64,000 bases of DNA, taken from the NCBI GenBank assembly GCA_026395215.1, contig JAPLZC010000009.1:8711-72710 (forward strand). The letters run 5' to 3'. The stretch comes from Candidatus Staskawiczbacteria bacterium (GTDB taxonomy: Bacteria; Patescibacteriota; Minisyncoccia; Minisyncoccales; Staskawiczbacteraceae). Of the stretch, positions 23,448 through 56,257 are shown in pieces. The position numbers were made by a program, and so were the translations under genes. The number at the start of each line of letters is the position of its first letter. Positions within the stretch are counted from its first letter, which is position 1. The notes beneath the pieces were generated by a model that saw only the letters and a list, made by a program, of their open reading frames with translations, made no database searches and was not told the DNA's origin.

Positions 23448-23478
23448 TTGACACAATTTATTGATTTGGTAATATAAT
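23448..23478 (+). promoter_or_regulatory. purL cassette promoter (TTGACA ... TGGTAATATAAT)
   Basis: TTGACA at 23448-23453. -10 box TAATAT or TATAAT at 23470-23478. Confidence 0.5.
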
Positions 23479-23550
23479 TAACTGCCTTGATGGTTCAAGG
23501 TGAGTTCTTTTCCAATTTCGATTTTGTTAACAACGAAAAGGAGACCGACC

Positions 23551-26500
23551 ATGATGACGAAGCTGTATCGCAATGACGGCGTGGTGGAAGTGTGTTTTAA
23601 TATCGAGAGTCCTAGACAGTTGACGGATGAAGAACGGCAGAAGATTGCTTGGCTTATTGCTAGGCAGTATGCTGGTTTGGACGCAAAATCGGCGCCGGCG
23701 CATGCGTTTAACGAATACGTGGAGATTGGTCCTCGGCTTCAGGTTGAGACACCTTTTTCCAGCAATGCTGTGGGTATCTGTCGGAATATTGGGACCAATG
23801 TGGTTACGCGCATGGAAGAGTCGCGTTTGTATCCGATTCGGGTGCAAGGACGCGGTTTGACTCGCGAAGAACTGGTTGCTATACATCTGGATAAAATGAC
23901 TCAAGCGGTCTATCCATTGTGTGGCATTGAAAGTTTTGACTCAAAGCACGAAGTAGTGCCGGTCAGGATGATTCCGGTTCTTACAGAAGGCGCAGAAGCC
24001 ATTCGACGCTACAACAACGAGATGGGTCTTGGTATGGACGAAGTGGATATCGCATTCTGTGTGAATCTCTTTGGTCAGAAGTATCGGCGTAATCCCACGG
24101 ATGTGGAATTGGTTCAACTCGGCAATATGAATAGTGAGCATTGCCGGCACAAATTGTGGAAGGGAAGAATTGTGATTGGTGGTGTGGTAATGCAAGAAAC
24201 ACTGTTGGATTTGGTGCGCGCGCCTTTGCGGCTTCGCGGACAATGCAACAGTATCCTGGCGTTCAATGATAATTCCGGATGTTTGGCCGGACCGGAAATT
24301 TGGGGCTTTGTGCCCGAGAATCCGGGTGATCCGTCAAAAATGATTCGGGTCAGAATTACTCAATACATCACGGCAACCGCGGAAACTCACAATCATCCCA
24401 CAGCTATTTGCCCCTTTCCTGGGGCGGCGACAAAAGATGGTGGTGAGATCCGCGATGAAAGCGCTACGGGGAGTGGTTCACGTGCGGGAATGGGATTTCA
24501 CGGACAATGTGTGGGAAATTTGCATTTGCCTGGTCATGAAATTCCGGGTGAGACGCTTGGCAAGGGAGAAATTCCTAAGTATGCTTCAGCTTTGAAAATC
24601 TTGATTGAAGGCACAAATGGTGCGTCGCACTATTGTAACGCTTTTGGCAGACCACTTGGTGGTGGTTTCTGTCGGACGTTTGATCAAATAGTCGCCGGAG
24701 AGAGACGTGGCTTTCACAAGCCAATTTTCTACGGTGGCGGTGTTGCGACAATTGATGCTCGGCATGTGATTAAAGGAGAAGCTGAAGTCGGTATGATGGT
24801 AATACGTTGGGGTGGCCCCGGCTTTGAGATTGGCCTTGGTGGCGGAGCAGCCTCCAGTTTGGGGCAGGGTGACAATACGGAAAGTTTGGATTATAAGTCC
24901 GTTCAACGGGGCAACCCGGAAATGGAAAACCGAGCTAACCGTGTAATTACTACCTGTACTGATTTGGGAGATAATAATCCCATTGTTGCAATCCATGATC
25001 AAGGTGCCGGTGGTCCGAGTAATGTGCTTACAGAGCTGGTTGAGGCACTAGGCGCGTTGATTGATGCTGACCAGATTACTTTGGGCGATAAAACAATGGC
25101 GTACCTGGCAATCTGGAGCGCAGAGTTCCAGGAAGGTTACGGCGCTCTTGTTCGTAGAGAAAATCTGTGGTTATTCCGAAAAATCTGTCAGCGCGAACGC
25201 GTGAATTGCGAGGTGGTGGGCGAGATTACTGGTGATCATCGGATTAAGGTAATCAGCTCCAAAACCAATGCGGTTCTCGTGGACTTGGATTTGCGGGATG
25301 TGTTAACGCATGCCCCGCAGAAGACCTTTGAATTCCAGCGGGTTGAACGCAAGTTTGATCCGCCAGTGATTCCGACCGATAAGACAGTTGAACAGTTGAT
25401 TGAGATGGTTTTTAGACTGCCATCGGTTGGGTCAAAGGGATTCCTTACGCGAAAGATTGACCGGTCAGTGACGGGTAGGGTTGCGTGCCAGCCCTGTTGC
25501 GGACCAACACAAATTCCGTGTGCTGATGTAGGCGTCCATCTGGACGGTTATTTCGGAGATTCAGGAGCGGCCGGAGCGCTTGGTGAACAGCCGAATGTGA
25601 TGTTCGTGAACTCGCAAGCGGGAGCGCGAATGTCACTTGGTGAAATGTTGACCAATTTGTGCGCGGCCAAAATTTCCGGCTTTCCAGACATCAAGACGCG
25701 CATTAATCAGATGGGTGCATTCAAATTGCCGGGCGAGGGCGCGCGACTGTGGGATGCCAATGTTGCTTTGCGCGACATGATTGTTGCTATGGGTGGAGCT
25801 GAACCAGACGGCGGAAAGGATTCGTCGTCTATGGTTGGCCTTGCCGGTGGCGAGAAAGTAAAAGCGCCCAGCGAAATGGTGGTGCTGGGTTATGCTCCGG
25901 TGCCAGATTGCAATAAGGTGCTCACGCCGGACTTCAAATATCCGGGACAAAGTCTCATTGGTTTCATTGATTTGGGGCATGGCAAAAACCGTATGGGCGG
26001 TTCGGCCTTGCTTCAGGCTTTGGGACAAGTGGGCGATGTCATTCCGGACGTGGATGATCCACTAGAATTGCGCCGTGCGTTTGACGCTGTACAGGAACTA
26101 ATTGGCCGTGGTCTCATTTCCGCTTATCACGATCGTAGTGATGGCGGACTGGTGGCGACTTTGGCCGAGATGTGCTTGTCGGCAAATTGCGGAGCAATGG
26201 TGGAGTTGAAAAGATGGGAAAATGTTGTTTCTGGCCTCTTTAACCAGGAACTGGGGATGGTGTTTGAGTATTCAGAGGAGAATGAACCTTTGATTGATAT
26301 GGTTTTAAGACAAGATTTTGGGATAGAGTGGTCCCGAATCGGTCAGACGACCATGTTAAAACAGTTGCTTATCATTACAAGACCGCATTCTCAAAGTAGT
26401 CCTAATGTCCGAATTCCACTCGGCACGCTTCGTCCTTGGTGGGAGGCCACAAGCACTCGCCTGGAAATGGAGCAGGCCAATCCGGAAACGGTGAGACAAG

Positions 26501-27393
26501 AGAGCGAGACGCACAAAAACCCGCAGGCGATTTCATATCATCTGACTTTCGTGCCTCAAGAAACAGCGCCGGAAGAATTGGTGTGGGATAATCGTCCAAA
26601 AGTTGCCATTCTTCGTGAAGAGGGAACAAACGGCGAGCGGGAAATGCAAGCGGCATTTGAGACAGCTGGTTGCGAAGTATGGGATGTTTGTATGCAGGAT
26701 TTGCTGGACGGCAAAATTTCTCTGGACTTGTTCCAGGGTCTGGTGGCCGCCGGCGGATTTTCATATATGGATGTCTTTGAGAGCGGAAAAGGTTGGGCGG
26801 CAGGAATACTGTTTAACCCGACTTTGCGGGAAATGTTTGATCGGTTTTACCACCGGTCTGACACTTTTTCGTTGGGCGTCTGCAATGGCGCCCAGCTTCT
26901 GCCTCTCATCCGGCGGGTACCTTTCAAGGACATGCCGGAAGAAGAGCAATCGAGGTTTGTGGAAAATACTTCTCGCCGGTTTGAGTCGCGGTGGTCGCTC
27001 GTGAAAATCCTTCCGAGTCCATCGATATTTTTTACTGGTATGGAAGGCTCGGTGCTTGGTGTTCATGTGGATCATGGGGAAGGTAGGATGATCTTCCCTG
27101 ATCGGACAGTTGAGGTAAGAGTACAAAGAGGTCAGCAAATTCCTATGGCGTTTGTTGATCCTGAACACCGCCTGACCGAACAGTATCCGTACAATCCGAA
27201 TGGGTCGCCAATGGGATTCTGCGCTATGTGCACGCCAGATGGGCGACACACGGCAATGATGCCTCATCCCGAACGGGCGTTTCGAAAGTTGCAGTGGCAC
27301 TATTTGCCCGAATCGTGCAAACGAGATTGGCCGGTGTCACCGTGGCTAAAGATGTTCCAGAACGCCCGCAAGTGGTGTTTAAAAAATAAGTAG
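23551..27393 (+). CDS. purL: Phosphoribosylformylglycinamidine (FGAM) synthase, single-chain large type
   Basis: NSEHCRHK, ETHNHPTAICPFPGAATKDGGEIRDE, C-terminal GATase GVCNGAQLL...MMPHPER. AAAGGAG SD before ATG 23551. G+C-rich codons. Confidence 0.9.
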   Translation: MMTKLYRNDGVVEVCFNIESPRQLTDEERQKIAWLIARQYAGLDAKSAPAHAFNEYVEIGPRLQVETPFSSNAVGICRNIGTNVVTRMEESRLYPIRVQGRGLTREELVAIHLDKMTQAVYPLCGIESFDSKHEVVPVRMIPVLTEGAEAIRRYNNEMGLGMDEVDIAFCVNLFGQKYRRNPTDVELVQLGNMNSEHCRHKLWKGRIVIGGVVMQETLLDLVRAPLRLRGQCNSILAFNDNSGCLAGPEIWGFVPENPGDPSKMIRVRITQYITATAETHNHPTAICPFPGAATKDGGEIRDESATGSGSRAGMGFHGQCVGNLHLPGHEIPGETLGKGEIPKYASALKILIEGTNGASHYCNAFGRPLGGGFCRTFDQIVAGERRGFHKPIFYGGGVATIDARHVIKGEAEVGMMVIRWGGPGFEIGLGGGAASSLGQGDNTESLDYKSVQRGNPEMENRANRVITTCTDLGDNNPIVAIHDQGAGGPSNVLTELVEALGALIDADQITLGDKTMAYLAIWSAEFQEGYGALVRRENLWLFRKICQRERVNCEVVGEITGDHRIKVISSKTNAVLVDLDLRDVLTHAPQKTFEFQRVERKFDPPVIPTDKTVEQLIEMVFRLPSVGSKGFLTRKIDRSVTGRVACQPCCGPTQIPCADVGVHLDGYFGDSGAAGALGEQPNVMFVNSQAGARMSLGEMLTNLCAAKISGFPDIKTRINQMGAFKLPGEGARLWDANVALRDMIVAMGGAEPDGGKDSSSMVGLAGGEKVKAPSEMVVLGYAPVPDCNKVLTPDFKYPGQSLIGFIDLGHGKNRMGGSALLQALGQVGDVIPDVDDPLELRRAFDAVQELIGRGLISAYHDRSDGGLVATLAEMCLSANCGAMVELKRWENVVSGLFNQELGMVFEYSEENEPLIDMVLRQDFGIEWSRIGQTTMLKQLLIITRPHSQSSPNVRIPLGTLRPWWEATSTRLEMEQANPETVRQESETHKNPQAISYHLTFVPQETAPEELVWDNRPKVAILREEGTNGEREMQAAFETAGCEVWDVCMQDLLDGKISLDLFQGLVAAGGFSYMDVFESGKGWAAGILFNPTLREMFDRFYHRSDTFSLGVCNGAQLLPLIRRVPFKDMPEEEQSRFVENTSRRFESRWSLVKILPSPSIFFTGMEGSVLGVHVDHGEGRMIFPDRTVEVRVQRGQQIPMAFVDPEHRLTEQYPYNPNGSPMGFCAMCTPDGRHTAMMPHPERAFRKLQWHYLPESCKRDWPVSPWLKMFQNARKWCLKNK

Positions 27394-27413
27394 GTCCCTT
27401 TGGGACAAAGCAC

Positions 27414-27452
27414 GGCCCGGCTTGCTACTCAGCAACTCCGGGCTCTTTTTTT
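27414..27452 (+). terminator. Intrinsic terminator after purL
   Basis: GCCCGG...CCGGGC stem with nested TTGCT/AGCAA, then TCTTTTTTT. Confidence 0.7.
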
Positions 27453-27463
27453 GAGACGTGGCA

Positions 27464-27493
27464 TTGACAAGGTGGTTTAATTCGTGCTATAAT
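27464..27493 (+). promoter_or_regulatory. Promoter TTGACA-N18-TATAAT
   Basis: TTGACA at 27464-27469 and TATAAT at 27488-27493. Confidence 0.5.
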
Positions 27494-27569
27494 TAACACA
27501 GTAACTTGATTCAACAATTTCCGGTAACGGAACGGCAGGCAAGCCGAAAAAACCGAAAGGAAAAATGCC

Positions 27570-27770
27570 ATGAAGATGACGATAATTGAATACAAATGTC
27601 GTCGATGTGAGGCTCACTTCGATGGCAAAAAAACTGGAATCGAGCCGGGGATTGCCGCGGTTCTTGATGAACTCGCAAAGCCAATTCCCTTAACGTGGCA
27701 TTCCTGTGCCAACGGTGGCCACGGCGCCGCCGATATCATCGGATATCGTGAGGAGCAGGGCTTGATGTGA
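27570..27770 (+). CDS. Hypothetical 66-aa Cys/His protein (CRRC...HSC)
   Basis: Has its own promoter and a GAAAGGAAAA SD. G+C-rich like purL. Confidence 0.5.
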   Translation: MKMTIIEYKCRRCEAHFDGKKTGIEPGIAAVLDELAKPIPLTWHSCANGGHGAADIIGYREEQGLM

Positions 27771-27870
27771 GCCGAGATCTGCCACAGGCAGAAAGCATCA
27801 CGAAGGGCCGAAGAGAAATCTGAGGCCTTTTAACTTGCAAAAAATATTGCCTGCCTGCTGGCGAGGCAGG

Positions 27871-27899
27871 TTGCAGGAAAATTAGTTTTGGGGTAAAAT
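27871..27899 (+). promoter_or_regulatory. alaS promoter TTGCAG-N17-TAAAAT
   Basis: TTGCAG at 27871-27876 and TAAAAT at 27894-27899, 13 nt before the ATG. Confidence 0.45.
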
Positions 27900-27911
27900 G
27901 AAATATTAAAT

Positions 27912-29675
27912 ATGAAAATAACTTCGGGAGAACTTAGGGAGAAATTTTTAAATTATTTTAAAAGGCAGGGGCATGTGATAATTCCTTCGGCTTCTTTGAT
28001 TCCGGAGAATGATCCTACTGTGCTTTTTACAACTGCGGGAATGCATCCGTTGGTGCCTTATTTGTTGGGGCAAAAACATCCGGAAGGAACACGATTAACT
28101 GATTCTCAAAAATGTATAAGAACCGGAGACATTGATGATGTCGGCGATGACACTCACAATACTTTTTTTGAAATGTTGGGAAATTGGTCGTTGGGAGATT
28201 ACTGGAAAGAAGAATCTATAAAATGGTCTTTTGAATTTTTAACAAAAGAATTAGAGATTCCATTGGATAGATTAGCTTTCACTTGTTTTGTGGGAGATGA
28301 AAATGCGTCAAAAGATGAGGAGTCTGCAGATATATGGAGGAGTTTGGGTGTTTTGGATGATAGAATAAAATTTTTGGGTAAAGAAGATAATTGGTGGGGT
28401 CCTGCTGGGCAAACTGGTCCTTGTGGTCCTGACACAGAAATGTTTTATTGGAAATTGAATGACACGCCAGCTCCAAAAGTTTTTGATGCAAAAGATAAAA
28501 ATTGGGTTGAAATTTGGAATAACGTTTTTATGCAGTATGTGAAAGATGAAGCCGGAAATTATAATATTGCAAAACAAAAAAATGTTGATACGGGAATGGG
28601 TTTAGAAAGAACCTTGGCTGTGCTAAACGGAAAAGAAAATATTTATGAAACAGATTTATTTTCTGATTTAATTAAAAAAGTTGAAGAATTATCCGGAAAG
28701 AAATATGCGGAGGATATGAAATCTTTTAGAATTATAGTAGATCACTTAAGGGCGGTTACATTTATAATTGGGGACGTTAAGGGAGTTACTCCAAGTAATG
28801 TTGGCCAGGGTTATATTGTGCGACGACTTATTAGGCGAGCTGTTAGATTTGGAAAGAAGATAGGAATTACAAAAGAAAACTGGACAAGGGAAGTTGCAGA
28901 GGTGGTTGCAATAAATTACGAAGATGTTTATCCAGGTATAAAAGAAAATTTAGATTTTGTTTCAGCCGAGTTAACAAAAGAAGAAGAAAAATTTAATTTA
29001 ACTTTGGAAAAAGGATTAAGAGAATTTGAGAAGTTAGAAAAAATATCAGGAAAAGATGCTTTTAATTTATATCAAACATATGGGTTTCCAATAGAAATTA
29101 CAGAGGAATTGGCGCGTGAAGATGGTAAAGAAATTAACAAGAAAGAATTTGATAAAGAACTGGAAAAACATCAGGAATTATCTCGCACAGCTTCGGCTGG
29201 AGTTTTTAAGGGGGGATTGGCTGATGCTAGTGAGGCAACTACAAAGTTGCATACAGCAGCTCACTTAATGTTAGCTGGTTTGCGCAAGGTTTTGGGTGGT
29301 GAGGTTTATCAAAAAGGGAGCAATATAACCGCTGAAAGATTGAGGTTTGATTTTTCTTGGAAAGAAAAACTGACCAGTGCACAACTTAATGATGTAGAAA
29401 ATTTTGTAAATGATATAATAGAGAAAGATATGCCTGTACGCTGTGAAGAAATGACTTTGGAAAAAGCAAAAGAGCTGAATGCTATGGGAGTTTTTGAATC
29501 TAAATATGGGCAAATCGTAAAAGTTTATACTGTGGGCTCGGAAAATAATATAGCAAGCAGAGAAATATGCGGTGGCCCTCACGTAGAACATACAGGAATT
29601 TTAGGAAAGTTTAAAATACAAAAAGAAGAAAGCTCCTCTTCAGGAGTAAGAAGAATAAAAGCAATACTCGAGTAA
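27912..29675 (+). CDS. alaS: Alanyl-tRNA synthetase, short form (587 aa, no C-Ala domain)
   Basis: FTTAGMHPLVPYL, WGPAGQTGPCGPDTEMF, editing-site HTAAHLM and CGGPHV. Confidence 0.88.
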   Translation: MKITSGELREKFLNYFKRQGHVIIPSASLIPENDPTVLFTTAGMHPLVPYLLGQKHPEGTRLTDSQKCIRTGDIDDVGDDTHNTFFEMLGNWSLGDYWKEESIKWSFEFLTKELEIPLDRLAFTCFVGDENASKDEESADIWRSLGVLDDRIKFLGKEDNWWGPAGQTGPCGPDTEMFYWKLNDTPAPKVFDAKDKNWVEIWNNVFMQYVKDEAGNYNIAKQKNVDTGMGLERTLAVLNGKENIYETDLFSDLIKKVEELSGKKYAEDMKSFRIIVDHLRAVTFIIGDVKGVTPSNVGQGYIVRRLIRRAVRFGKKIGITKENWTREVAEVVAINYEDVYPGIKENLDFVSAELTKEEEKFNLTLEKGLREFEKLEKISGKDAFNLYQTYGFPIEITEELAREDGKEINKKEFDKELEKHQELSRTASAGVFKGGLADASEATTKLHTAAHLMLAGLRKVLGGEVYQKGSNITAERLRFDFSWKEKLTSAQLNDVENFVNDIIEKDMPVRCEEMTLEKAKELNAMGVFESKYGQIVKVYTVGSENNIASREICGGPHVEHTGILGKFKIQKEESSSSGVRRIKAILE

Positions 29676-29781
29676 CGACGGATTTTTACAGATTAGAAAC
29701 GGATTAACACAGCATCACGGATACGAAAATCTGTGATTCGTGAAAATCCGTAATTCATTTGTGTAAATCCGTTTCATACAA
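29676..29781 (+). repeat. ACGGAT-word intergenic repeat element, copy 2
   Basis: Shares the core ...ATCACGGATACGAAAATCTGTGATTCGTGAAAATCCGT... and the terminal inverted words ACGGATT / TGTGTAAATCCGT. Confidence 0.85.
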
Positions 29782-34626: not shown

Positions 34627-34627
34627 C

Positions 34628-35659: not shown

Positions 35660-35992
35660 ATGATAAGTAACAAACGCATTGTTGTGTACTTTTTTGTACT
35701 GTTAATTGCGGTCTGGTTTTTTAAGATTACAATCAATGATGGCAACAGCATGGCTCCAACTTTGTTTAGTGGGCAGGTTTGTCTGGTGGTGAAGTGTGTG
35801 GAACCCTTGCCAGGAGATATTGTTTACGCTTACGATAATGAAGGCGTGGGAGTGTGTAAGAGGTTGGCGTGGTACACCAAAAACGGAGAGATGTTTCTTA
35901 TTGGTGATAATGCCAAAAATAGCCTTGATAGCCGACATCTTGGGCCGGTGCCCATGTCAGCCTATATAGGCAAAGTGGCGTTTTGTCCTTAG
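35660..35992 (+). CDS. Minimal S26-family (signal-peptidase-I-like) serine peptidase, 110 aa
   Basis: N-terminal TM. GNSMAPTL (catalytic Ser box), CKRL (Lys box), GDNAKNSLDSRHLGPV. AAGGAG SD. Confidence 0.65.
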   Translation: MISNKRIVVYFFVLLIAVWFFKITINDGNSMAPTLFSGQVCLVVKCVEPLPGDIVYAYDNEGVGVCKRLAWYTKNGEMFLIGDNAKNSLDSRHLGPVPMSAYIGKVAFCP

Positions 35993-35994
35993 TC

Positions 35995-36018
35995 GCAGAG
36001 GTTTGTCCTCTGCTTTTT
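35995..36018 (+). terminator. Intrinsic terminator
   Basis: GCAGAGG-tttgt-CCTCTGC followed by T5. Confidence 0.7.
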
Positions 36019-36040
36019 ATTGAACCTCACTCAATAAGGT

Positions 36041-36146
36041 TTGACATTTTTGATAAAATTGGTAATGTTATATTGCAACTTGAAAAATAGTTTCGAATAG
36101 TTCGGAAATTTTCCAGGTGAGTATTCTTTTTAAAAGGAGAAAGTTC
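36041..36146 (+). promoter_or_regulatory. Promoter-leader repeat, copy A (TTGACA...GTTATATT, leader hairpin, SD)
   Basis: The first roughly 50 nt are nearly identical to copy B at 36401-36504. Confidence 0.55.
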
Positions 36147-36362
36147 ATGAGCAAGAAAGCTAAGAGGGAAGATCCAAAGGCGAGAGCCTATCTCGAGAGT
36201 CTTTATCGCCTCGCAAAGACCGGGAGAAGCATAAAGAAGAGATTGAAATTCATGAAGTCGCGCAAGAATGGGAATGTCCGTATCAGCCATGTGAACACTC
36301 CAGCGGAAGGGCTTGCTATTCTGGAAGTTGCTGAAATTCACGACATCACAGACTATTGTTAG
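36147..36362 (+). CDS. Hypothetical basic 71-aa protein
   Basis: AAAAGGAG SD 7 nt before ATG 36147. The track start at 36117 lies inside the leader. Confidence 0.5.
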   Translation: MSKKAKREDPKARAYLESLYRLAKTGRSIKKRLKFMKSRKNGNVRISHVNTPAEGLAILEVAEIHDITDYC

Positions 36363-36398: not shown

Positions 36399-36400
36399 AT

Positions 36401-36504
36401 TTGACAATTTTAGTAAAATTGATAAGGTTATATTGCACCTTGAAAAATAACTCCGAACATCTCGGAACTTTTTTTTGGTGTGGTGAAGAACCAAGGAGAT
36501 AAAA
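36401..36504 (+). promoter_or_regulatory. Promoter-leader repeat, copy B
   Basis: TTGACA at 36401-36406, exactly 360 nt after copy A. Leader hairpin TCCGA-acatc-TCGGA followed by T8. AAGGAG SD. Confidence 0.55.
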
Positions 36505-37638
36505 ATGAAAAGTATGACATACGATGGAGTTGGCGTTGATTACGACGCAATGGATCCATTCAAACGCATGGCGCAACTGGCCGGCAGGGAAACCGCTGGC
36601 GAACTGTCTCGCCACGGATTTTCTGAAGTTGAGTGGAGTCGTGGTGAGAGTTGTTACCTCGTGGAAACGCCATTTGGCTACATCGGTTTTGTCGTTGAAG
36701 GTCTTGGCACCAAAAGCCTGGTCGCCGATGCCTTACTCGAACTGGCTATCAAGATGAAATCGTTCAACGGCACAACCTACTACAACAAAGTGGCGCAGTG
36801 CAACGCTGCGATGGCGTTCAACGATATCATCACGCTTGGGGTGCGTCCGTTTGCCTATGGGCAATATCTTGCTGTAGGAGAATCCAGTTGGTTTGACAAT
36901 GAAGTGCGTTGTCGTGAACTGGTTGAAGGCACAAAGTTTGCTTGCAAACTCGCTCGGTGTTCTTGGGGCGGCGGTGAAACGCCAACCCTCAAGGGCATCG
37001 TTGTTCCTGGCACAGCAGATCTGGCCGGAGCAACCGTCGGATTTGCTCGTAAAGATCAATTGATTAACCCTGCCAATATTAGGCCGGGCGATGCGATTAT
37101 TTTTGTCGAAAGTTCTGGAATTCATGCCAATGGTTTAACCTTGGCAAGACGAATCGCTGACAAGCTTCCGGAGGGATATCTGACAAAACTTTCCGATGGT
37201 CGGACCTACGGCGAAACACTTCTCGACCCTACTGAAATATACGTCGGACTGGTTGCAGACTGTCAGGATAATGGGGTGGATATCCACTACGCAGTCAACA
37301 TCACCGGCCATGGCTGGCGCAAGCTCATGCGGGCTACACAGCCCTTTACCTACGTCATCGAGACGTTGCCCAAACAGCTTCCCATTTTCGACTTCATCCA
37401 AGAGCACGGACCGGTCGACGACAGGGAAGCTTACGGCAATCTCAATATGGGTGCGGGCTTCGCGCTCTACGTTCCGGCAGACGATGTTGCCAAGGTTTTG
37501 GCTATCGCCAACGTCAACATGTCGGCAGACTTCGACAGTGTTTTCCTTGCCGGCTATATCGAGCAAAGCGACACCAAGAAAGTGGTCATCAGGCCAAAGG
37601 GTCTGGAATATCTCGGCTCAACGCTGGGCGTTCGCTGA
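36505..37638 (+). CDS. purM: PurM-family protein (phosphoribosylformylglycinamidine cyclo-ligase / AIR synthase-like)
   Basis: Collinear with PurM: GVGVDYDAMDPFKR, EGLGTKS, AMAFNDIITLGVRP, SWGGGETP, SSGIHANGLTLARR, LLDPTEIYV, NITGHGW, NMGAGFALYV. Confidence 0.75.
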   Translation: MKSMTYDGVGVDYDAMDPFKRMAQLAGRETAGELSRHGFSEVEWSRGESCYLVETPFGYIGFVVEGLGTKSLVADALLELAIKMKSFNGTTYYNKVAQCNAAMAFNDIITLGVRPFAYGQYLAVGESSWFDNEVRCRELVEGTKFACKLARCSWGGGETPTLKGIVVPGTADLAGATVGFARKDQLINPANIRPGDAIIFVESSGIHANGLTLARRIADKLPEGYLTKLSDGRTYGETLLDPTEIYVGLVADCQDNGVDIHYAVNITGHGWRKLMRATQPFTYVIETLPKQLPIFDFIQEHGPVDDREAYGNLNMGAGFALYVPADDVAKVLAIANVNMSADFDSVFLAGYIEQSDTKKVVIRPKGLEYLGSTLGVR

Positions 37639-37663: not shown

Positions 37664-37692
37664 GCCACACGGATTTTGTGTGGCTTTTTTTT
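37664..37692 (+). terminator. Intrinsic terminator after purM
   Basis: GCCACAC-ggatttt-GTGTGGC followed by T8. Confidence 0.75.
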
Positions 37693-37792: not shown

Positions 37793-38476
37793 ATGTTAAA
37801 AGAACTTATAGACCAGTTTTATTTGGATAATCAGAGGAATAGGGAACAGACTCGGTTTTATATTACGGATGCGGGGAAGTGTCCGCGGGCGGTTTTTTTT
37901 AAGTTTAAAAATGCGCCAAAGGAGCCAATGGATGCGCGAATTATGCGGATTTTTGAGCACGGGGAAAACATTCACAGGTCTATTTTTAATATTTTATATA
38001 GGTTGCGACTAGGAGTTGTCACCGAGGTTTCTATACCGTCACAGGAGATAATTTCCGGCAGGGCAGACGCCATTTTATGTATGGATAACCAAAACTATGT
38101 GCTGGATATTAAAAGCATGAATAGCATGATTTTTAGGAAGCTTGAGTCGCCTAAGGAAGAAAATATTTTTCAAATCCAGCTTTATCTGCACTACTTTAAT
38201 ATAAAAAAAGGAATATTACTTTACATAGATAAAGATAGGCAGGAAATGAAAGAATTTTTTGTAGATTATGACGAGGCGCTTTGCAAGGGGCTTCTGGACA
38301 AGTTCTACGTCCTGAAAGATCAAGTGGAAAAAAATATTATACCTGCAAGACTGGAAGACTTCCCGCGCAATTGGCAGTGTAATTATTGCCAGTTTAAAGA
38401 TATTTGCAAAATAGCCAATGGAGACACTCTAAACTGGGATGATTTCAAACAAAAAGTATTGACCATAAGTCAATAA
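37793..38476 (+). CDS. Cas4/RecB-like PD-(D/E)XK nuclease with a four-Cys cluster, stand-alone
   Basis: N-terminal Cys (DAGKCPRAVFF), GRADAIL...LDIKS...QLYLHY nuclease core, C-terminal WQCNYCQFKDIC. Confidence 0.65.
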   Translation: MLKELIDQFYLDNQRNREQTRFYITDAGKCPRAVFFKFKNAPKEPMDARIMRIFEHGENIHRSIFNILYRLRLGVVTEVSIPSQEIISGRADAILCMDNQNYVLDIKSMNSMIFRKLESPKEENIFQIQLYLHYFNIKKGILLYIDKDRQEMKEFFVDYDEALCKGLLDKFYVLKDQVEKNIIPARLEDFPRNWQCNYCQFKDICKIANGDTLNWDDFKQKVLTISQ

Positions 38477-49527: not shown

Positions 49528-49528
49528 G

Positions 49529-49600
49529 TGGGCGCGGAAGGAATCGGACCTTCGACCTCTATCTTATCAGGATAGCGTTCTACCACTGAACTACGCGCCC
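49529..49600 (-). tRNA. tRNA-Ile (anticodon GAU)
   Basis: The reverse complement GGGCGCGTAGTTCAGTGGTAGAACGCTATCCTGATAAGATAGAGGTCGAAGGTCCGATTCCTTCCGCGCCCA folds as a cloverleaf. Anticodon loop CTGATAA. No encoded CCA. Confidence 0.92.
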
Positions 49601-49680
49601 AATTAATTAGAATTTTATCAAATATTTCGGAAAATAGCAATGGGGTTGATTTCAGATTGTATTAGGGCTAAAATATAAAT

Positions 49681-50223: not shown

Positions 50224-50240
50224 CCGAAAGGCGAAAAAAT

Positions 50241-51026
50241 ATGTTAGCTGAAGTTAAAGTTTTAGTTTTAGGCGTTTCAAATGCCGAATCTGTAATAGAA
50301 AATGGCGAGGAGCATACTCAGCCAACAATTACTCTTGTCCGCGACAAGGATTTTGTGATGGTAGTTGACCCGGGCGTTTTGGAAAACCAGCAGGTATTAG
50401 TTGAAGCATTAAAAAAAGAGAACTTAACAGTCCAAGACGTTAATGTTGTTTGTATCACACACTCGCACCTTGACCATTACAGAAACATTGGGATGTTTCC
50501 AAACGCAAAAGCTATAGACTATTATGGGGTATGGGACAAGACAACTATTGTGACTTGGTCTGAAGATCTCACAGATAATATTAAGGTTCTGCACACCCCC
50601 GGCCACGATTATACCAGTATAACTCTTTTTGTAACTACTAAGGACGGTGTTGTTGCAATATGCGGAGATGTTTTTTGGAGAGAAAATTATCCACGTGATC
50701 CACATGATGATGTTTTTGCTTCTAACCCGGAAAGATTAAAAGAAAGTAGGGAAATGATATTGAGGGATGCTGATTGGATTGTTCCCGGCCATGGCCCGAT
50801 GTATAAAAATGACCGAGCTGCGGAGGAAGAAAAGGAGAGAGAACAAATGGCAGAAAAAAGAAATGAAGAAGGAATAAGAAATCAAAAGGTCACCATAGCC
50901 TGTAAAAGATGCGGAATGCAGATGAGTCAAAAGGACAAATGTAGATGCAGGCCATATTTATGTTTTAGGTGTTGTGAGTGTGGTTTAGATTGTAATAATT
51001 GTAGTTGTAGCCATCGGAAATCCTGA
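50241..51026 (+). CDS. MBL-fold metallohydrolase with a Cys-rich C-terminal tail
   Basis: ITHSHLDHYRN, HTPGHD, PGHGP. The tail is CKRCGMQMSQKDKCRCRPYLCFRCCECGLDCNNCSCSH. Confidence 0.7.
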   Translation: MLAEVKVLVLGVSNAESVIENGEEHTQPTITLVRDKDFVMVVDPGVLENQQVLVEALKKENLTVQDVNVVCITHSHLDHYRNIGMFPNAKAIDYYGVWDKTTIVTWSEDLTDNIKVLHTPGHDYTSITLFVTTKDGVVAICGDVFWRENYPRDPHDDVFASNPERLKESREMILRDADWIVPGHGPMYKNDRAAEEEKEREQMAEKRNEEGIRNQKVTIACKRCGMQMSQKDKCRCRPYLCFRCCECGLDCNNCSCSHRKS

Positions 51027-52318
51027 TGAAAAAGATATTTTTAATTTTAATAATTTTGGTAGCACTAGGTTTTGCAGGTAATGCTTTTGCGCATCAACCG
51101 GTAATTGTTTTTGGCCAGACTGGTGAAATACAAGTAAAAAATCCGGATATTTCTAGGGCTTTTTACGACGAGCTAAAAGGTAGCCCGCGGGATTATTTTA
51201 TTGATTCGGATAAGGATTTTATTTTGTATATAAATCTCTTAGTGCCAGGACACGCAAATGAGATTGGGAAGTATTCGGCTGTTATTTTTAGAGGAGAGGA
51301 AAAAATTGCTTTAGTTGACGGGGATTCTTTTGAGTGGAAATCATGGTGGGAGCCTTTTGGGCGCGACTGGTATATGCAAGGTCCTGAATTGACACAACAG
51401 GTTCCTGCGGGAAAATATAAAATTGAGGTCTATTCTAAAGACAATCTTGGCAAGTATGTTTTGGCTGTTGGTCAAACAGAGTCTTTTGATATTAAGTCAC
51501 TGCTGAATGTTTATTGGCAATTGCCTTTGCTTAAATTAACATTTTTTAAAACATCTATTTTGCAATTCTTTCTTACGCCTTTTGGGATAGGTCTAATTGC
51601 AGTTGTTGGAGGGTTGTTAATACTTCTAGCCCTTATTTATTTTGTTATTGGATTTGTTAAAGAAACCATAAAACATAATCAAGCAAAAACTTTGCTTTTA
51701 ACCTCTGGTGGTATGCTACAAATGCAAGACGAAATAATAAAATTACTTCAGAAACCAGCCTATGACGTAACGGTTGGGTTTATTAATACTGCTGCTAAAC
51801 CCGAGGAAGATAAAAGTTATTTGCAGAGGGATTTAGATATCATGAAAGAGCTTGGTTTTAATGTAGAACAGTTTGATATTGAGGGTAAAAAAGAACATGA
51901 GGTGATGGATTTTTTACGGCTAAAGGACATAGTTTATGTGGAAGGCGGGAGCACTTTTTATTTATTAAAAGCAATGCGAGCTTGTAACTTTGAGAAAGTG
52001 ATTAGAAAATTATTAAAGCAGGGCAAGGTTTATATTGGAGTATCGGCTGGGACTTTGGTTGCTGGAAGAACAATAAAAACATCTAGTTGGAAACATCCAG
52101 AACAAGATTTTAGAGTCAAGAATTTGAGAGGTTTAAATCTTGTGCCGTTTGATATTTTTGTGCATTATTTACCTGAGCATGCGGAACTTATAAAACAAAA
52201 AATTAAGAATCCTAAAAAGAGGGCTAAGAATTTGAGGATTTTGACGGACGACCAGGCAATTTTGGTTCAGGGAAAAGAAGTAGATTTAATTGGCGACGGC
52301 GAAGCCGTTATAATATAA
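51026..52318 (+). CDS. Membrane protein with a C-terminal peptidase S51 (dipeptidase E-like) domain
   Basis: Signal/TM segments. S51-like VYVEGGSTFYLLKAMR and GVSAGTLVAG. Confidence 0.6.
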   Translation: MKKIFLILIILVALGFAGNAFAHQPVIVFGQTGEIQVKNPDISRAFYDELKGSPRDYFIDSDKDFILYINLLVPGHANEIGKYSAVIFRGEEKIALVDGDSFEWKSWWEPFGRDWYMQGPELTQQVPAGKYKIEVYSKDNLGKYVLAVGQTESFDIKSLLNVYWQLPLLKLTFFKTSILQFFLTPFGIGLIAVVGGLLILLALIYFVIGFVKETIKHNQAKTLLLTSGGMLQMQDEIIKLLQKPAYDVTVGFINTAAKPEEDKSYLQRDLDIMKELGFNVEQFDIEGKKEHEVMDFLRLKDIVYVEGGSTFYLLKAMRACNFEKVIRKLLKQGKVYIGVSAGTLVAGRTIKTSSWKHPEQDFRVKNLRGLNLVPFDIFVHYLPEHAELIKQKIKNPKKRAKNLRILTDDQAILVQGKEVDLIGDGEAVII

Positions 52319-52450
52319 AATTATTCTAATTATTCTAATTGCTCTAATCATTCTAAATAATTTCTAATATCTAACTTTTAAAAATTTTGAGTTTAGGTAT
52401 TATGTTTTATTTAGGTTAATTAGTATAATTAGGTTAATTAGAAATTCATC

Positions 52451-52669
52451 GTGAAAATATTTATCACGGCTAAGCCTAACTCTAGAGAAGAATATGTGGA
52501 ACGGGTAGATGAGAGCCACTATGTTGTTTCGGTTAAGGAACCGCCGGTAAAGGGGAAGGCAAATGAGGCAATAAGAAATGCTTTGGCAGTGTATTTTAAA
52601 ACCGGTTCATCGTGCGTTAAAATTGTTTCAGGGTATTCGTCACGTAATAAAATAATAGAAATATTATAA
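52451..52669 (+). CDS. DUF167/YggU-like small protein
   Basis: GTG start; VKEPPVKGKANEAIRNALAVYF. Confidence 0.55.
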   Translation: MKIFITAKPNSREEYVERVDESHYVVSVKEPPVKGKANEAIRNALAVYFKTGSSCVKIVSGYSSRNKIIEIL

Positions 52670-52687
52670 TTAAAATAGTCTATTAAA

Positions 52688-52903
52688 ATGGAAACAAAAA
52701 CAACAATTAAAGGCCATACCGTTTCTCATGGATTGGACGTAAGTGGTGGTTTGAAATATTTAATGTATGAATTAGATTTTCAGGAAGCAAAAGTTTTTTT
52801 TAATGAGGCACATGATCATGGGTCAGTAATTTTTGAAGATCATTTAGATAGGAAATATAAACTTATCTACCACGGAGGAGAATATCAGCTAATTAGAGCA
52901 TAA
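52688..52903 (+). CDS. Hypothetical protein (71 aa)
   Basis: ORF followed by hairpin CAGTCA...TGACTG and a T-run. Confidence 0.45.
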   Translation: METKTTIKGHTVSHGLDVSGGLKYLMYELDFQEAKVFFNEAHDHGSVIFEDHLDRKYKLIYHGGEYQLIRA

Positions 52904-52933
52904 ATATAATTGATTCTATATTTTTCAGTCATC

Positions 52934-52962
52934 TTGAAAGGGTGACTGATTTTTGTTATAGT
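52934..52962 (+). promoter_or_regulatory. pyrD cassette promoter TTGAAA-N17-TATAGT
   Basis: TTGAAA at 52934-52939 and TATAGT at 52957-52962. Overlaps the upstream terminator hairpin. Confidence 0.45.
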
Positions 52963-53013
52963 TTTACCAGACAGCACTAACGTTGTCGCGGTTCATTGAA
53001 AAGGAGAAAAGCA

Positions 53014-53940
53014 ATGATAGATCTTTCGGTAGAAGTAGCAGGAATCAGAATGCAGAATCCGATTATGCCGGCTTCCGGCACCTTCGGCTATGGCGAAGAT
53101 TACATCGACCTAGTTGATAATTCAAAACTGGGTGCGCTGGTTGGTAAAGGCACAACCGCCCTGAATCGCGAAGGAAATGAGCAACCGCGAACATGGCCGG
53201 TTCCTGGCGGGATGATAAATTTTATCGGTTTACAAAACCCCGGCGTTCATACAGTCGTAAACGACAAAGTTCCATACATGTATAAGTTCGGCGTTCCGAT
53301 TATTATTAACGCTTCTGGTAGTACGGTTGAGGAATATGCTACGGTTGTGGCAGTTTTGAATACTTCTTCGTTGATTGACGGCATTGAGGTAAATATTTCG
53401 TGTCCAAATGTAAAAGAGGGCGGAGTTGCTTTTGGTCAAGATCCTGTGTTGGCAGGGGAAGTTGCTCGCGCTGTCCGCAAAGAAACAAAACTTCCATTGA
53501 TATTTAAACTGACTCCAAACGTGGCGAGCGTTATCCCTGTTGCCAGAGCAGTTATTGAAGCTGGAGCCGACGCCATTTCTTTGGTCAACACATTCAAGGC
53601 AAGGGCCAGAATTAGGAGTGGTTTGTACAAAGGCCAATGGATTGAAGGCGGTTATTCTGGACAGGGGATTATGCCAATCGCGTTGAAAATGGTTTCCGAT
53701 CTATACAAAGCTAAAATCGGAGTTCCTATAATTGGCATGGGTGGAATTTCCTCGCTAGAGGACGTCCTAGATTTTTTGGAAAGTGGAGCTGATGCTGTCC
53801 AAATTGGCACGGCAACTTTCATTGTTCCATCCACAATGACCGACATTATCCGTGACCTCGGATTATATATTGAACAAACGGGATGTCAAAGTCTCAAAGA
53901 ATGGCGGGAAAAAGGTTTCCCAATGCCCAAAGAAAAATGA
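53014..53940 (+). CDS. pyrD: Dihydroorotate dehydrogenase, class 1 (catalytic Cys)
   Basis: NPIMPASGTFGYG, GIEVNISCPNVKEGG, KLTPNV, SLVNT, GGI...D. Start moved to ATG 53014 behind an AAGGAG SD. Confidence 0.85.
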   Translation: MIDLSVEVAGIRMQNPIMPASGTFGYGEDYIDLVDNSKLGALVGKGTTALNREGNEQPRTWPVPGGMINFIGLQNPGVHTVVNDKVPYMYKFGVPIIINASGSTVEEYATVVAVLNTSSLIDGIEVNISCPNVKEGGVAFGQDPVLAGEVARAVRKETKLPLIFKLTPNVASVIPVARAVIEAGADAISLVNTFKARARIRSGLYKGQWIEGGYSGQGIMPIALKMVSDLYKAKIGVPIIGMGGISSLEDVLDFLESGADAVQIGTATFIVPSTMTDIIRDLGLYIEQTGCQSLKEWREKGFPMPKEK

Positions 53941-53953
53941 GATTCATAGGTTG

Positions 53954-53981
53954 GTTCTTGCTATTGCAAGAACTTTTTTTT
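53954..53981 (+). terminator. Intrinsic terminator after pyrD
   Basis: GTTCTTGC-tatt-GCAAGAAC followed by T8. Confidence 0.75.
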
Positions 53982-54086
53982 GTGGTAATCTGAATACGAG
54001 TTAGTTACAGTCGCGACGTGTTGTCGGGGCGCTAACGGGTTCGTTGAAATCATTATTGGTGGAAAGTTAAGAGAGGAAAACAGCAA

Positions 54087-54548
54087 ATGTCAACAACAGC
54101 AAAAGTCCCACAGATTGATAATAGTGGCGCACCTATTTGGTGGCATAAACACGGATCAAAAATGCGACTGAAGGTTTTTAGTCATTCGGCAAATATTTTT
54201 TTGGTAATCCAGGGGAGTGCCGCCGAGCTGAAGGTAGGTAAGCTCGACAACCGCTGGATTGTTGCCTGGAAAATAACCCAAAGCCCGACAGAAAATTCTT
54301 CCGGAAGGATTATCATGAACGACCATAGCCTTGCTCAGGCGTTCGGCTTGGATGACGATGGATTGTTTAGCAGTTGTTGGTTGATCGAACGATACGGCGG
54401 AACAGTTGCTCATCAAGGGCAGTTTATCCGTTGGGATAAATTTTTGAACATTCCTTGTCCGGGAACCGGCCACGACGGCGACCTCAATGTGTCCATTTAT
54501 TTGGACGAGAAGATAAAGGAAGCAGTCGGCAAACTTCTCGGCCGATAA
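54087..54548 (+). CDS. Hypothetical protein (153 aa), G+C-rich
   Basis: AGAGAGGAAAA SD-like region. Own terminator. No motif recognised. Confidence 0.5.
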   Translation: MSTTAKVPQIDNSGAPIWWHKHGSKMRLKVFSHSANIFLVIQGSAAELKVGKLDNRWIVAWKITQSPTENSSGRIIMNDHSLAQAFGLDDDGLFSSCWLIERYGGTVAHQGQFIRWDKFLNIPCPGTGHDGDLNVSIYLDEKIKEAVGKLLGR

Positions 54549-54565
54549 CAACACCAGTGATTCAT

Positions 54566-54598
54566 GTCCGGCGACCCTCGCGTCCCGGATTTTTTTTG
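54566..54598 (+). terminator. Intrinsic terminator
   Basis: CCGGCGAC...GTCCCGG imperfect stem followed by T8. Confidence 0.55.
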
Positions 54599-54600
54599 CG

Positions 54601-54629
54601 TTGACACAAAATTATTTTATTGGTAAGGT
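54601..54629 (+). promoter_or_regulatory. pyrF cassette promoter TTGACA-N17-TAAGGT
   Basis: TTGACA at 54601-54606. -10 candidate at 54624-54629. Confidence 0.4.
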
Positions 54630-54695
54630 AATTTAAGTCAGTTGTAGCGTCGGCATTTTGTCTGCGCGCTGATGTGGGTAGTTCATTGAGAAAGG

Positions 54696-55433
54696 TTGGT
54701 TACAGTGAAAAATGCAAAAGACATGATATGGGTAGCGGTTGACGTTTCAACCCAGGCAGAAGCGATTGGTCAAATCAAAACCCTGGTTGACAACGGCATA
54801 AGAAGAATCAAGTTGGGGCTTGAGCTTCTTTCAACAGGGGACCGGGAAAGTGTGATTCACTTCGCACAGCTATCCGGGTGCGAGGTTTTTTACGACGGGA
54901 AGTTTGACGACATTCCCCACACGGTTGGCGCGGCGGCAAAAGTTGTCGCTAGTCGTGGAGTGGCAATGTTCAACGTTCATGCTTCGGCTGGGCGTAAAGC
55001 CATGGAAGCGGCGGTAGCGAACAAGGGTCAAAGCAATGTTCTTGTTGTGACCCTGCTCACTTCTCTGAGCAAAGAAGACCTCCGCGATTTGGGATATCCG
55101 GAATCCATAAGCAAAGACGTTGTCGTACGAGCGATGGCGTCCTGCGCTGCTGAGTGTAAGGTAGATGGTATCATCTGCTCGGCTCAGGAAGCCCAGTTGG
55201 TGCGATCTGTTATGCCACAAGGCATGATTGTCACGCCGGCGATTCGGCCTGTTTGGGCAGTAGTCGGCGATCAGAAGCGTCCGACAACTCCGACTGATGC
55301 AATCAAGGCTGGCGCAACGGATTTGGTTATTGGACGACCCATCACAAATCCTCCGCCGGAAATCGGTTCTCCTACAGAAGCTCTGAAGCGAATCGTTGAC
55401 GAAATCGCCGAGGCTATGCAAGTTACACCGTAA
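54696..55433 (+). CDS. pyrF: Orotidine-5'-phosphate decarboxylase
   Basis: VAVD, FYDGKFDDIPHTV (DxKxxDIPxT box), LVIGRPIT. Start is ambiguous: TTG 54696, GTG 54705 or ATG 54723. Confidence 0.8.
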   Translation: MVTVKNAKDMIWVAVDVSTQAEAIGQIKTLVDNGIRRIKLGLELLSTGDRESVIHFAQLSGCEVFYDGKFDDIPHTVGAAAKVVASRGVAMFNVHASAGRKAMEAAVANKGQSNVLVVTLLTSLSKEDLRDLGYPESISKDVVVRAMASCAAECKVDGIICSAQEAQLVRSVMPQGMIVTPAIRPVWAVVGDQKRPTTPTDAIKAGATDLVIGRPITNPPPEIGSPTEALKRIVDEIAEAMQVTP

Positions 55434-55461
55434 TCTCACAAACCAGAAAGGAAACAGAACA

Positions 55462-56187
55462 ATGAGAACACCACAAACAATTACCGATTTGCTTCGGCTG
55501 AAATTTGGTGGATTGGGAAGTTTCCCAACACCAGAAGAGGTCCTGACATGGTTTAACCTGTTACAAGCCGGTTGGGTTCATAACGGGGATCCCAAGAAGC
55601 CTCATGCGGTGCTTCATTCCGGTTTACATAGTACAGGATTTTTTCTTTGCAAGCGTGTGCTGGCATACGGCAACCTGCGGGAAATCCTGGCAGAATGTAT
55701 CGTAAACAAGCTCTATACCGCCGGTGGTGAGAGCTTCATGAAAAGTATTGGAGGCGTATTTGGCTCACCGTATTCCTCCATTCTTTTGGCTGGCGACATC
55801 GCTCGGTTGATGGAGGTGAAGGTTTACGTGCCCGAGAAAGATCCGGCCGATCCTGACGGCAAGAAGATGCGCTTCAAGCCCGATGATCCGATTCCTGCTG
55901 GCACAATACTTCTGCAAATCGAGGAGCTCGTTACCAAGTTTGACAGTGGTGACGCAACTAAACAGGCAATTATCGACGGCAATTCTAATCCGGTGGAATT
56001 CGCCAAGTTCGTCGGTGTATTGGTGTATCGTCCGCCGGAGATTGCCCCCGAGCTACCTGACGGTCGCACAATCATACCATTCATTCAGAAGCGCGTGGAT
56101 GCTTGGGATCCCAAGTATTGTCCACTTTGCAGTAAAGGCTCAAAAGTGGTTTCTCCCAAAACCAACTGGGCTGAGCTCACTGCTTAA
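55462..56187 (+). CDS. Type I phosphoribosyltransferase, orotate PRTase-like, with a C-terminal CPLC motif
   Basis: HAVLHSGLHSTGFF resembles the PyrE F-L-SG-S box. ILLQIEELVTKFDSG is a degenerate PRPP loop. Start moved to ATG 55462 behind a GAAAGGAAA SD. Confidence 0.5.
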   Translation: MRTPQTITDLLRLKFGGLGSFPTPEEVLTWFNLLQAGWVHNGDPKKPHAVLHSGLHSTGFFLCKRVLAYGNLREILAECIVNKLYTAGGESFMKSIGGVFGSPYSSILLAGDIARLMEVKVYVPEKDPADPDGKKMRFKPDDPIPAGTILLQIEELVTKFDSGDATKQAIIDGNSNPVEFAKFVGVLVYRPPEIAPELPDGRTIIPFIQKRVDAWDPKYCPLCSKGSKVVSPKTNWAELTA

Positions 56188-56217
56188 GTCTTCAACACAA
56201 CAAATAATTATCTCAAT

Positions 56218-56257
56218 GGTCCTTTGTCGCACTCGCGGCACTGGACCTCTTTTTTTG
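56218..56257 (+). terminator. Intrinsic terminator at the island end
   Basis: GGTCC...GGACC stem followed by a T-run. Confidence 0.55.

Follow-up and report, generated by a model that had tools for sequence, protein, structure and literature searches.

Old, probably horizontally acquired nucleotide-biosynthesis genes wedged between core operons of a Candidatus Staskawiczbacteria genome

How do isolated G+C-rich genes for purine and pyrimidine synthesis come to lie between the core operons of an otherwise AT-rich bacterial genome, and which steps do they contribute there? This question is raised by a 64,000-nucleotide stretch of DNA (hereafter the window; contig JAPLZC010000009.1, positions 8,711 to 72,710), which belongs to a metagenome-assembled genome (MAG) of Candidatus Staskawiczbacteria, a Parcubacteria-type member of the Candidate Phyla Radiation (CPR); the encoded proteins are 100% identical to those of that MAG. 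Three of its four G+C-rich blocks harbor a phosphoribosylformylglycinamidine (FGAM) synthase (PurL), an aminoimidazole ribonucleotide (AIR) synthase-related protein (PurM), a dihydroorotate dehydrogenase (PyrD), an orotidine 5'-monophosphate (OMP) decarboxylase (PyrF), and a divergent orotate phosphoribosyltransferase (OPRT). Considering all lines of evidence jointly, we regard it as probable that these are old horizontal acquisitions from gene families spread CPR-wide and equipped with their own host-type signals, being neither phage-derived nor recent nor private to this genome.

A sliding-window profile separated the four blocks (approximately 8.2-9.1, 23.5-27.8, 35.7-37.7, and 52.9-56.3 kb), reaching 0.44-0.52 G+C, from a background of about 0.35. 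On gene level, the G+C content of third codon positions (GC3) ranges from 0.40 to 0.55 in the island genes, corresponding to z = 3.7-8.2 in relation to 56 host genes (0.285±0.032, maximum 0.37). Codon preferences differ as well: arginine is encoded by AGA in 59% of the cases in host genes vs 14% in island genes and by CGN in 18% vs 77%, and TTA accounts for 37% of the leucine codons in host genes vs 5% in island genes. A first-pass annotation of the same sequence had noticed four G+C-rich blocks with distinct codon use by eye, and both the sliding-window and the gene-level statistics bear this out.

Abrupt shifts of composition at eight junctions of a metagenome-derived contig would also be expected from an artefact of assembly or binning, in which G+C-rich pieces of another organism were joined into a CPR contig, and the first-pass annotation had pointed to the junctions as the place where such a chimera would show. 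An independent Logan assembly (run SRR20698644) yielded a 29.7-kb contig, extending from SecY to the PurM gene, with identical gene order and identical junctions of blocks 2 and 3. Furthermore, matching genes at matching loci were found on four contigs (L005, L006, L087, and L088) that stem from different samples and studies, and the junctions themselves are intergenic DNA bearing host-type promoters and terminators. A chimeric assembly is therefore excluded by the identical junctions and the syntenic contigs, and an artefact as the source of the blocks is hardly credible.

The second block carries purL (23551-27393, forward strand, as are all units of blocks 2 to 4), which encodes a single-chain FGAM synthase of 1280 aa with a GC3 of 0.50. 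The protein matches TIGR01735, the model of the large PurL, over its full length (1261.3 bits, cut-off 1123), and all Pfam domains of the single-chain enzyme (FGAR-AT_N, linker, AIRS_C, PurM_N-like, and GATase_5) were found. Its promoter (23448-23475) combines TTGACA, a 16-nt spacer, and the extended -10 element TGGTAATAT, and a GCCCGG...CCGGGC hairpin followed by a T-run (27414-27452) serves as predicted intrinsic terminator. Directly thereafter follows the cassette of a Cys-rich 66-aa protein (27464-27770; GC3 0.54) with a perfect TTGACA-18-TATAAT promoter (27464-27493), a coding sequence (CDS) at 27570-27770, and a weak match to phrog_16725 (3.3e-6).

PurL shares 50-55% identity with homologs from many CPR phyla, its nearest relatives reaching 81% and 70%. 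The block sits between tpiA and alaS, and this slot is variable among relatives. In L006 the gap between both genes amounts to 80 nt and is devoid of PurL, and in L005 it is occupied by three other small G+C-rich ORFs; the 81% and 70% identical homologs reside in other contexts, one behind a tRNA gene and one beside PurN. The island genes display the traits of genomic islets, i.e., atypical composition and codon use as well as presence/absence or relocation among relatives. The transfer of a mobile cassette including its promoter was considered and rejected: comparing the window with the 81% identical PurL gene of L086, nucleotide similarity ends at the CDS ends, and the expression signals therefore do not travel with the gene.

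The purM gene of the third block (36505-37638, 377 aa) encodes a CPR-type protein of the AIR synthase-related family. Pfam AIRS and AIRS_C are both found above their gathering scores, and 20 PDB chains of PurM match, the best with an E-value of 6.5e-33. Identity amounts to ~32% toward Listeria PurM and likewise ~32% toward canonical PurM, and the protein falls into a separate CPR-centered clade with 62-81% identity across CPR, including Nomura-, Doudna-, Wildermuth-, Woese-, Taylor-, and Nealsonbacteria. The gene is located directly behind rpsI in the window as well as in L005 (81% identical) and L006 (73%), with a fully conserved order of flanking genes, and the three proteins form one clade with 100% bootstrap support (neighbor-joining tree, 100 bootstraps). 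Conservation extends upstream: the PurM promoter and leader (36400-36472; TTGACA-N15-TGATAAGGT followed by an A-tract, a hairpin, and a U-tract) contain a 30-nt core that is identical in L005 (promoter and leader at 9265-9340), although the DNA identity of the CDS is only 76%. With fold z-scores of -2.5 to -2.7, the A-tract/hairpin/U-tract layout of this leader resembles an attenuator. A hairpin with T-run (37664-37692) terminates the unit.

Two further genes precede PurM within this block, namely a truncated signal-peptidase-I-like (LepB-like) gene of 110 aa (35660-36018 including its terminator at 35995-36013; Peptidase_S26 1.6e-15; GC3 0.48) and the cassette of a 71-aa protein (36040-36362; CDS 36147-36362). 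The latter has a 73-nt promoter and leader (36040-36112) that duplicates those of PurM with 82% identity. Both genes are missing from the PurM locus of L005 and L006. Directly downstream of PurM we observed a gene for a Cas4-like PD-(D/E)XK nuclease (37793-38476; GC3 0.43; TIGR00372 7.8e-14, below the cut-off), syntenic in L005 and not in L006; neither a CRISPR array nor other cas genes were seen in the window.

The pyrimidine genes are clustered in the fourth block, located between S51 peptidase/DUF167 genes and ftsZ in the window, in L087, and in L088. The first one, pyrD (53014-53982; CDS to 53940, terminator 53953-53982; 308 aa, GC3 0.40), is a class-1 dihydroorotate dehydrogenase according to PRK07259 (337.7 bits, cut-off 269) and TIGR01037 (294.5, cut-off 270), with the models of the quinone-type, membrane-bound enzymes far under their cut-offs. 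A promoter-like site (52934-52962; TTGAAA-17-TATAGT with TG) and the terminator of the preceding gene overlap. PyrF (54705-55433, starting with GTG at 54705 or TTG at 54696) is assigned by PRK00230 (195.8, cut-off 193), TIGR01740 (123.4, cut-off 92.3), and Pfam OMPdecase (8.6e-40), and its promoter (54601-54629; TTGACA-N15-TGGTAAGGT) is conserved at the syntenic locus of L087/L088. The third enzyme gene (55462-56256; CDS to 56187, terminator 56218-56256) encodes a 241-aa phosphoribosyltransferase (PRTase) for which a Pfam search gave no match. A profile of its family (40 sequences) matched the Helicobacter OPRT of PDB entry 4paw with an E-value of 5.2e-19 over nearly the full length, C-terminal CPLC motif included. 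Furthermore, an AlphaFold (AF2) model (pLDDT 96.2) retrieved exclusively OPRT or UMP synthase structures on Foldseek PDB ranks 1-23. Based on the profile match and the top fold matches, the protein is best assigned as a divergent OPRT. In the window as well as in L087, L088, and L118, its gene is located beside that of PyrF. The family comprises 92 members, every organism-named one being CPR; NCBI records list them as hypothetical proteins, and JGI already names some of them OPRT.

Between PyrD and PyrF lies a gene for a 153-aa protein (54087-54597; CDS to 54548, terminator 54567-54597) without match in Pfam, NCBIfam, and PHROG, having 501 clusters of relatives and the nearly invariant motif NIPCPGTGHDGDPN. 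It was considered as a partner of PyrD and rejected: among 80 metagenome loci only 3 place it beside pyr genes, and its neighborhood is not conserved. Variation of the cluster among relatives was observed as follows. The pyrD gene of L088 (8070-9026) contains an in-frame TAA in place of a Gln codon of the window, and L087 is devoid of PyrD and carries (8969-9973) a 334-aa PyrF of different type, only 24% identical to that of the window. The constant part of the cluster is formed by PyrF plus OPRT, and relatives can do without PyrD. The flanking FtsZ (56301-57842) was seen to have an N-terminal extension of ~95 aa, very rich in Lys/Arg, before its tubulin domain.

As to the signals around these genes, the pattern TTGACA-N13-16-TGnTAnnnT occurs six times in the window vs 0.10 expected, and none of 100 shuffles reached six. 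All six occurrences of this extended -10 motif lie on the forward strand. Five are found directly before island genes, namely those of PurL, PurM, PyrF, and the 66-aa and 71-aa proteins, and the sixth precedes rpsL. Hairpins with T-runs were found behind PurL, PurM, PyrD, the 153-aa gene, and OPRT. It had been proposed that every gene is packaged alike, with a host-type promoter and its own terminator. The host-type character of the signals is supported, and the promoter enrichment and the terminators agree with the proposed layout; its uniformity does not hold, since PyrD and the 153-aa gene show only weak promoter matches and PyrF and OPRT are separated by a 29-nt gap with neither promoter nor terminator, hence forming a co-transcribed bicistron. 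A near-consensus sigma70 promoter with extended -10, a short leader, a strong Shine-Dalgarno (SD) sequence, and an intrinsic terminator would provide transcription independent of the neighbors.

The enzyme content had been predicted correctly: single-chain PurL, class-1 PyrD, and PyrF score above their model cut-offs, PurM is backed by domain and structure matches, and the OPRT-like PRTase by profile and fold. The list requires extension by the 66-aa, 71-aa, 110-aa LepB-like, and 153-aa genes and the ORFs of block 1. Likewise, no other gene of the two pathways was found in the 64 kb by Pfam or by six-frame tblastn with the complete Listeria pur and Enterococcus pyr sets, as previously stated. 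From this observation, the first-pass annotation had derived a purine patch that covers only the conversion of formylglycinamide ribonucleotide (FGAR) to AIR and that is fed by scavenged intermediates. The distribution of the PurM family suggests otherwise. It is found between purL/Q and purF/D in L079, L083, and L085, and in Levybacteria and other CPR (L079, L083, L085, L074) it belongs to complete operons with purB,K,E,C,L,Q,F,D,N,H, identifying it as a genuine PurM of CPR. Near PurM or PurL of the close clade we detected purD (L008), purH (L012), and purN (L017) as well as the PurN beside the 70% identical PurL, and in other CPR purE, K, B, C, F, N, H, and D adjoin this PurM family. A complete de novo purine pathway was reported for 32% of 399 CPR MAGs (PMC11608272). 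In consideration of the complete operons, the PurN neighbor, and this frequency, the restriction to FGAR and AIR most likely stems from viewing no more than 64 kb of the genome. PurL and PurM would convert FGAR via FGAM to AIR, probably as part of a dispersed de novo pathway with its other genes located beyond the window.

For the pyrimidine part, the predicted activities of PyrD, PyrF, and OPRT would lead from dihydroorotate or orotate to UMP. In the same set of MAGs, 55% were reported to have a complete module starting at UMP, "without the de novo part" (PMC11608272). An orotate-to-UMP module fed by scavenged orotate or dihydroorotate is plausible, since CPR usually have no upstream pyrimidine steps and since PyrD is lost (L087) or interrupted by a stop codon (L088) with PyrF and OPRT being kept. 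Of the proposed scavenging, the pyrimidine half therefore stands as plausible and the purine half does not.

In order to evaluate whether the compositional offset is peculiar to this genome, 80 genomes encoding this PurM family were fetched and the GC3 of PurM was compared with that of flanking ORFs. CPR with a PurM at least 57% identical to that of the window (n = 25) exhibited a mean excess of +0.165, exceeding 0.05 in 22 of the 25 (p 1.6e-5). The mean excess was +0.026 in CPR with more distant PurM (n = 22) and +0.020 in non-CPR (n = 10), neither being significant. The most extreme contrast of the family, by values over the matched stretch, was observed for PurM of L029 and L041 (~10001-11125), with a GC3 of ~0.87-0.89 vs ~0.40 in the flanks; the ORF calls of the same genes give 0.59-0.84. 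For OPRT, GC3 amounts to 0.35 vs 0.20 in host genes of L087 and 0.57 vs 0.26 in L088.

The empty PurL slot in L006, the homologs of PurL at other places, the differing PyrF type at the L087 locus, and the elevated GC3 of the PurM clade in 22 of 25 CPR genomes argue for horizontal acquisition, and the earlier claim of foreign composition caused by gene transfer is substantiated by the z-scores and the PurL slot. A recent acquisition or one private to this genome was rejected, the families being CPR-wide and PurM and the pyr cluster being orthologous and syntenic in relatives. Accepting the acquisition, the blocks would represent foreign genes wedged between core operons (fusA/tuf, tpiA/alaS, behind rpsI, and before ftsZ). 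PurM and the pyr cluster would already have been in place in the common ancestor of the related genomes, and PurL would have been inserted or moved later. For the G+C excess, the preferred reading is that the genes came from a G+C-richer source and have ameliorated only in part; repeated exchange among CPR may have helped to keep the excess up.

Several observations weigh against this interpretation and have to be considered. Among the ORFs scanned there was no integrase or transposase, and neither a tRNA target nor repeats at the island edges were found, the only long repeat being the one around the PaaX-like gene described below. No donor was identified in the neighbor-joining tree, the backbone of which is unresolved, and Vicinamibacterales and Armatimonadota nest within the CPR-dominated PurM clade with only 70% support. 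With respect to function, PurM scores 175.1 bits in TIGR00878, under the equivalog cut-off of 236.35, and the single OPRT sequence reaches 28.5 bits in TIGR01367 (pyrE_Therm), the cut-off being 150.25. The PyrK partner expected for a class-1B PyrD was detected neither in the window nor in related loci (tblastn with Enterococcus PyrK), and the dispersed purine pathway is viewed through 64 kb of this genome. With respect to composition, the Muto-Osawa lines relate GC1, GC2, and GC3 to genomic G+C, and the island genes match those for an equilibrium genome of ~50% G+C. In addition, the GC3 offset remains in three lineages with nearly saturated synonymous sites: flanking host proteins of the pyr locus are 66-86% identical among the window, L087, and L088, with four-fold sites close to saturation. 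Taken together, these observations imply that simple amelioration presupposes a donor of very high G+C content and gene uptake not long before the lineages separated. A simple decay estimate from four-fold identities suggests a GC3 of ~0.85-0.9 for the ancestral genes under this assumption. Maintenance of the G+C content via repeated exchange or biased conversion is a possible alternative to incomplete amelioration.

These compositional findings are at the same time what would be expected of native, vertically inherited genes whose high GC3 is maintained through selection or a biased process (e.g., GC-biased gene conversion at recombination-prone loci, or selection at the mRNA level): an offset kept at syntenic loci with near-saturated four-fold sites, three codon positions equilibrated at ~50% G+C without the skew of ongoing amelioration, conserved promoters and leader, and recurrence in 22 of 25 CPR genomes. 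The empty PurL slot in L006 with close homologs at other loci and the different PyrF type in L087 speak against inheritance in place. Unrelated small ORFs of the same blocks share the island-like composition. Ribosomal genes, being highly expressed, have the lowest GC3, thus showing that selection for expression does not favor G+C, and the distant CPR PurM clade and the complete pur operons, including that of Levybacteria, have host-like GC3. Consequently, we consider a purely native origin unlikely.

A further idea is that of CPR "solo cassettes", composed of a strong promoter, leader, one or two genes, and terminator, that are exchanged among CPR and inserted into hot spots without a recognizable recombinase, with ~50% G+C actively maintained. 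Their cargo may consist of nucleotide-synthesis and small unknown genes, their hot spots may be the gaps between core operons, and their G+C content may be kept up by, e.g., recurrent allelic replacement or biased gene conversion. This idea fits the excess in 22 of 25 genomes, the turnover of the tpiA|alaS and pre-ftsZ slots, and the duplication of the PurM promoter and leader at the 71-aa ORF. We give this idea a small chance only. Integron gene cassettes, i.e., promoterless ORFs with an attC site beside an intI integrase, do not agree with the data either: the units of the window bear their own promoters, and the window contains no integrase and no repeated attC-like element at the cassette ends.

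Returning to old horizontal acquisition as the preferred explanation, the question of a viral source has to be addressed, as the first-pass annotation had viewed the genes as phage-derived auxiliary patches which complete only those steps that start from imported FGAR and dihydroorotate. The layout of promoter, gene, and terminator indeed resembles phage morons. PurM matches the PHROG auxiliary family phrog_1207 in addition to the weak phrog_16725 match of the 66-aa protein, one IMG/VR contig contains a PRTase-PyrF pair, the 64 kb hold no other pathway gene, and the dispensability of PyrD in relatives is consistent with orotate scavenging. Against this, Pfam and PHROG searches of the window turned up no phage genes for structural proteins, an integrase, or replication. 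IMG/VR scans gave no match for PurM, PurL, and the 66-aa and 153-aa proteins and one match for OPRT with 32% identity, and the best matches among isolated phages (tblastn, 50,697 phage records) are 30-38% identical. Moreover, the families are CPR-wide, with PurM residing in full pur operons and PurN beside a close PurL homolog, and FGAR is a phosphorylated intermediate for which no uptake route is known. A phage auxiliary origin is thus not supported and appears quite improbable. The IMG/VR contig mentioned (L089, IMGVR_UViG_3300031949_000004), 194 kb in length, G+C-rich, and classed as viral, carries a PRTase, PyrF, and an NT5C-type 5'-nucleotidase (7174-12503), adjoining a 902-aa ORF with major-vault-protein domains. 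As a donor it was rejected, its PRTase-PyrF-NT5C group being at 32% identity.

Comparison with known systems places the blocks more precisely. A moron is a single gene with its own promoter and terminator between two prophage genes, its cargo serving lysogenic conversion. The window shares the layout, the insertion between conserved genes, and the atypical composition, but has neither prophage context nor close viral homologs, and its cargo is core metabolism. With the purM/purL-type auxiliary genes of cyanophages (phrog_1207) it has in common that the enzyme families occur as isolated genes outside a pur operon; identity is only ~30%, however, and the window PurM belongs to the separate CPR-centered clade. 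The OPRT resembles the Thermus/Helicobacter type (TIGR01367; 4paw, HP1257) in its type-I PRT fold, the CPLC motif, and the position of its gene beside pyrF. It differs by the phosphoribosyl pyrophosphate (PRPP) loop EELVTKFDSG, compared with the usual DDVxTTG, and by its affiliation to a family with fewer than 100 members that is apparently CPR-only.

Horizontal transfers and genomic islands are documented in Patescibacteria/CPR, mostly among CPR and including nucleotide metabolism (PMC12455944). Like those islands, the window contains genes of foreign composition, nucleotide metabolism included, in a streamlined CPR genome. Unlike them, its units comprise only one or two genes, are scattered in the region of the ribosomal-protein superoperon without mobility genes, and are in several cases old and syntenic across related genomes. 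In Micrarchaeota of the DPANN, purine and pyrimidine genes were gained horizontally gene by gene, with PyrF of multiple origins (PMC12892359). The parallel concerns an ultra-small, host-dependent lineage with piecemeal gain, exemplified here by the differing PyrF type at the shared L087 locus; the difference is that those are archaea studied by gene-tree/species-tree reconciliation, whereas the window is bacterial and presents compositional islets with own promoters and terminators.

In this sense, the finding is ordinary, well-documented horizontal transfer into a reduced genome. Modestly new are the GC3 excess throughout the PurM clade, the turnover at hot spots located between core operons, and the assignments of the divergent OPRT and the CPR PurM; our literature searches retrieved no published account of these cassettes or of a purL/purM pair in CPR. 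CPR bacteria are regarded as host-dependent with respect to nucleotides, and the locus shows in detail how biosynthetic steps can be patched in: single foreign genes with strong signals of their own, placed between essential operons and retained for long. Given the conserved orotate-to-UMP core, uptake of orotate from the host or the community is predicted. For annotation purposes, the "AIR synthase-related protein" of CPR corresponds to the PurM of complete CPR pur operons, and for a small family of ~240 aa without Pfam match, OPRT is the best assignment. The GC3 excess that recurs in the PurM clade furthermore provides a tractable means of studying gene flow within CPR.

The remaining block 1 lies on the reverse strand between fusA with a PaaX-like gene and tuf, and consists of an operon of five tiny ORFs (8212-9140) encoding 37-106 aa (8949-9122, 8824-8952, 8639-8827, 8322-8642, and 8212-8325) with a GC3 of 0.42-0.51. 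The ORFs overlap by ATGA/GTGA and are linked by a repeated 25-26-nt junction of SD sequence plus start (AAACCGAAAAGGAGCAAGCC-ATGA; repeat family D1/D3), each upstream ORF ending in ...RSKP and overlapping the next start codon. Pfam and PHROG searches gave no match for them, and the 106-aa ORF is listed by NCBI as hypothetical protein NTW11_02010. The neighboring PaaX-like regulator (7480-8040; GC3 0.40) has a Cas2-like central domain. Its gene is bracketed by a 62-nt direct repeat (7374-7435 and 8033-8094, 87% identity), of which there were no further copies in the window and none in 172 fetched loci. Each copy holds a perfect palindrome of 34-38 nt (ACGTACTTTTTTGCCAC|GTGGCAAAAAAGTACGT). The repeats may act as operators or mark the termini of an inserted unit.

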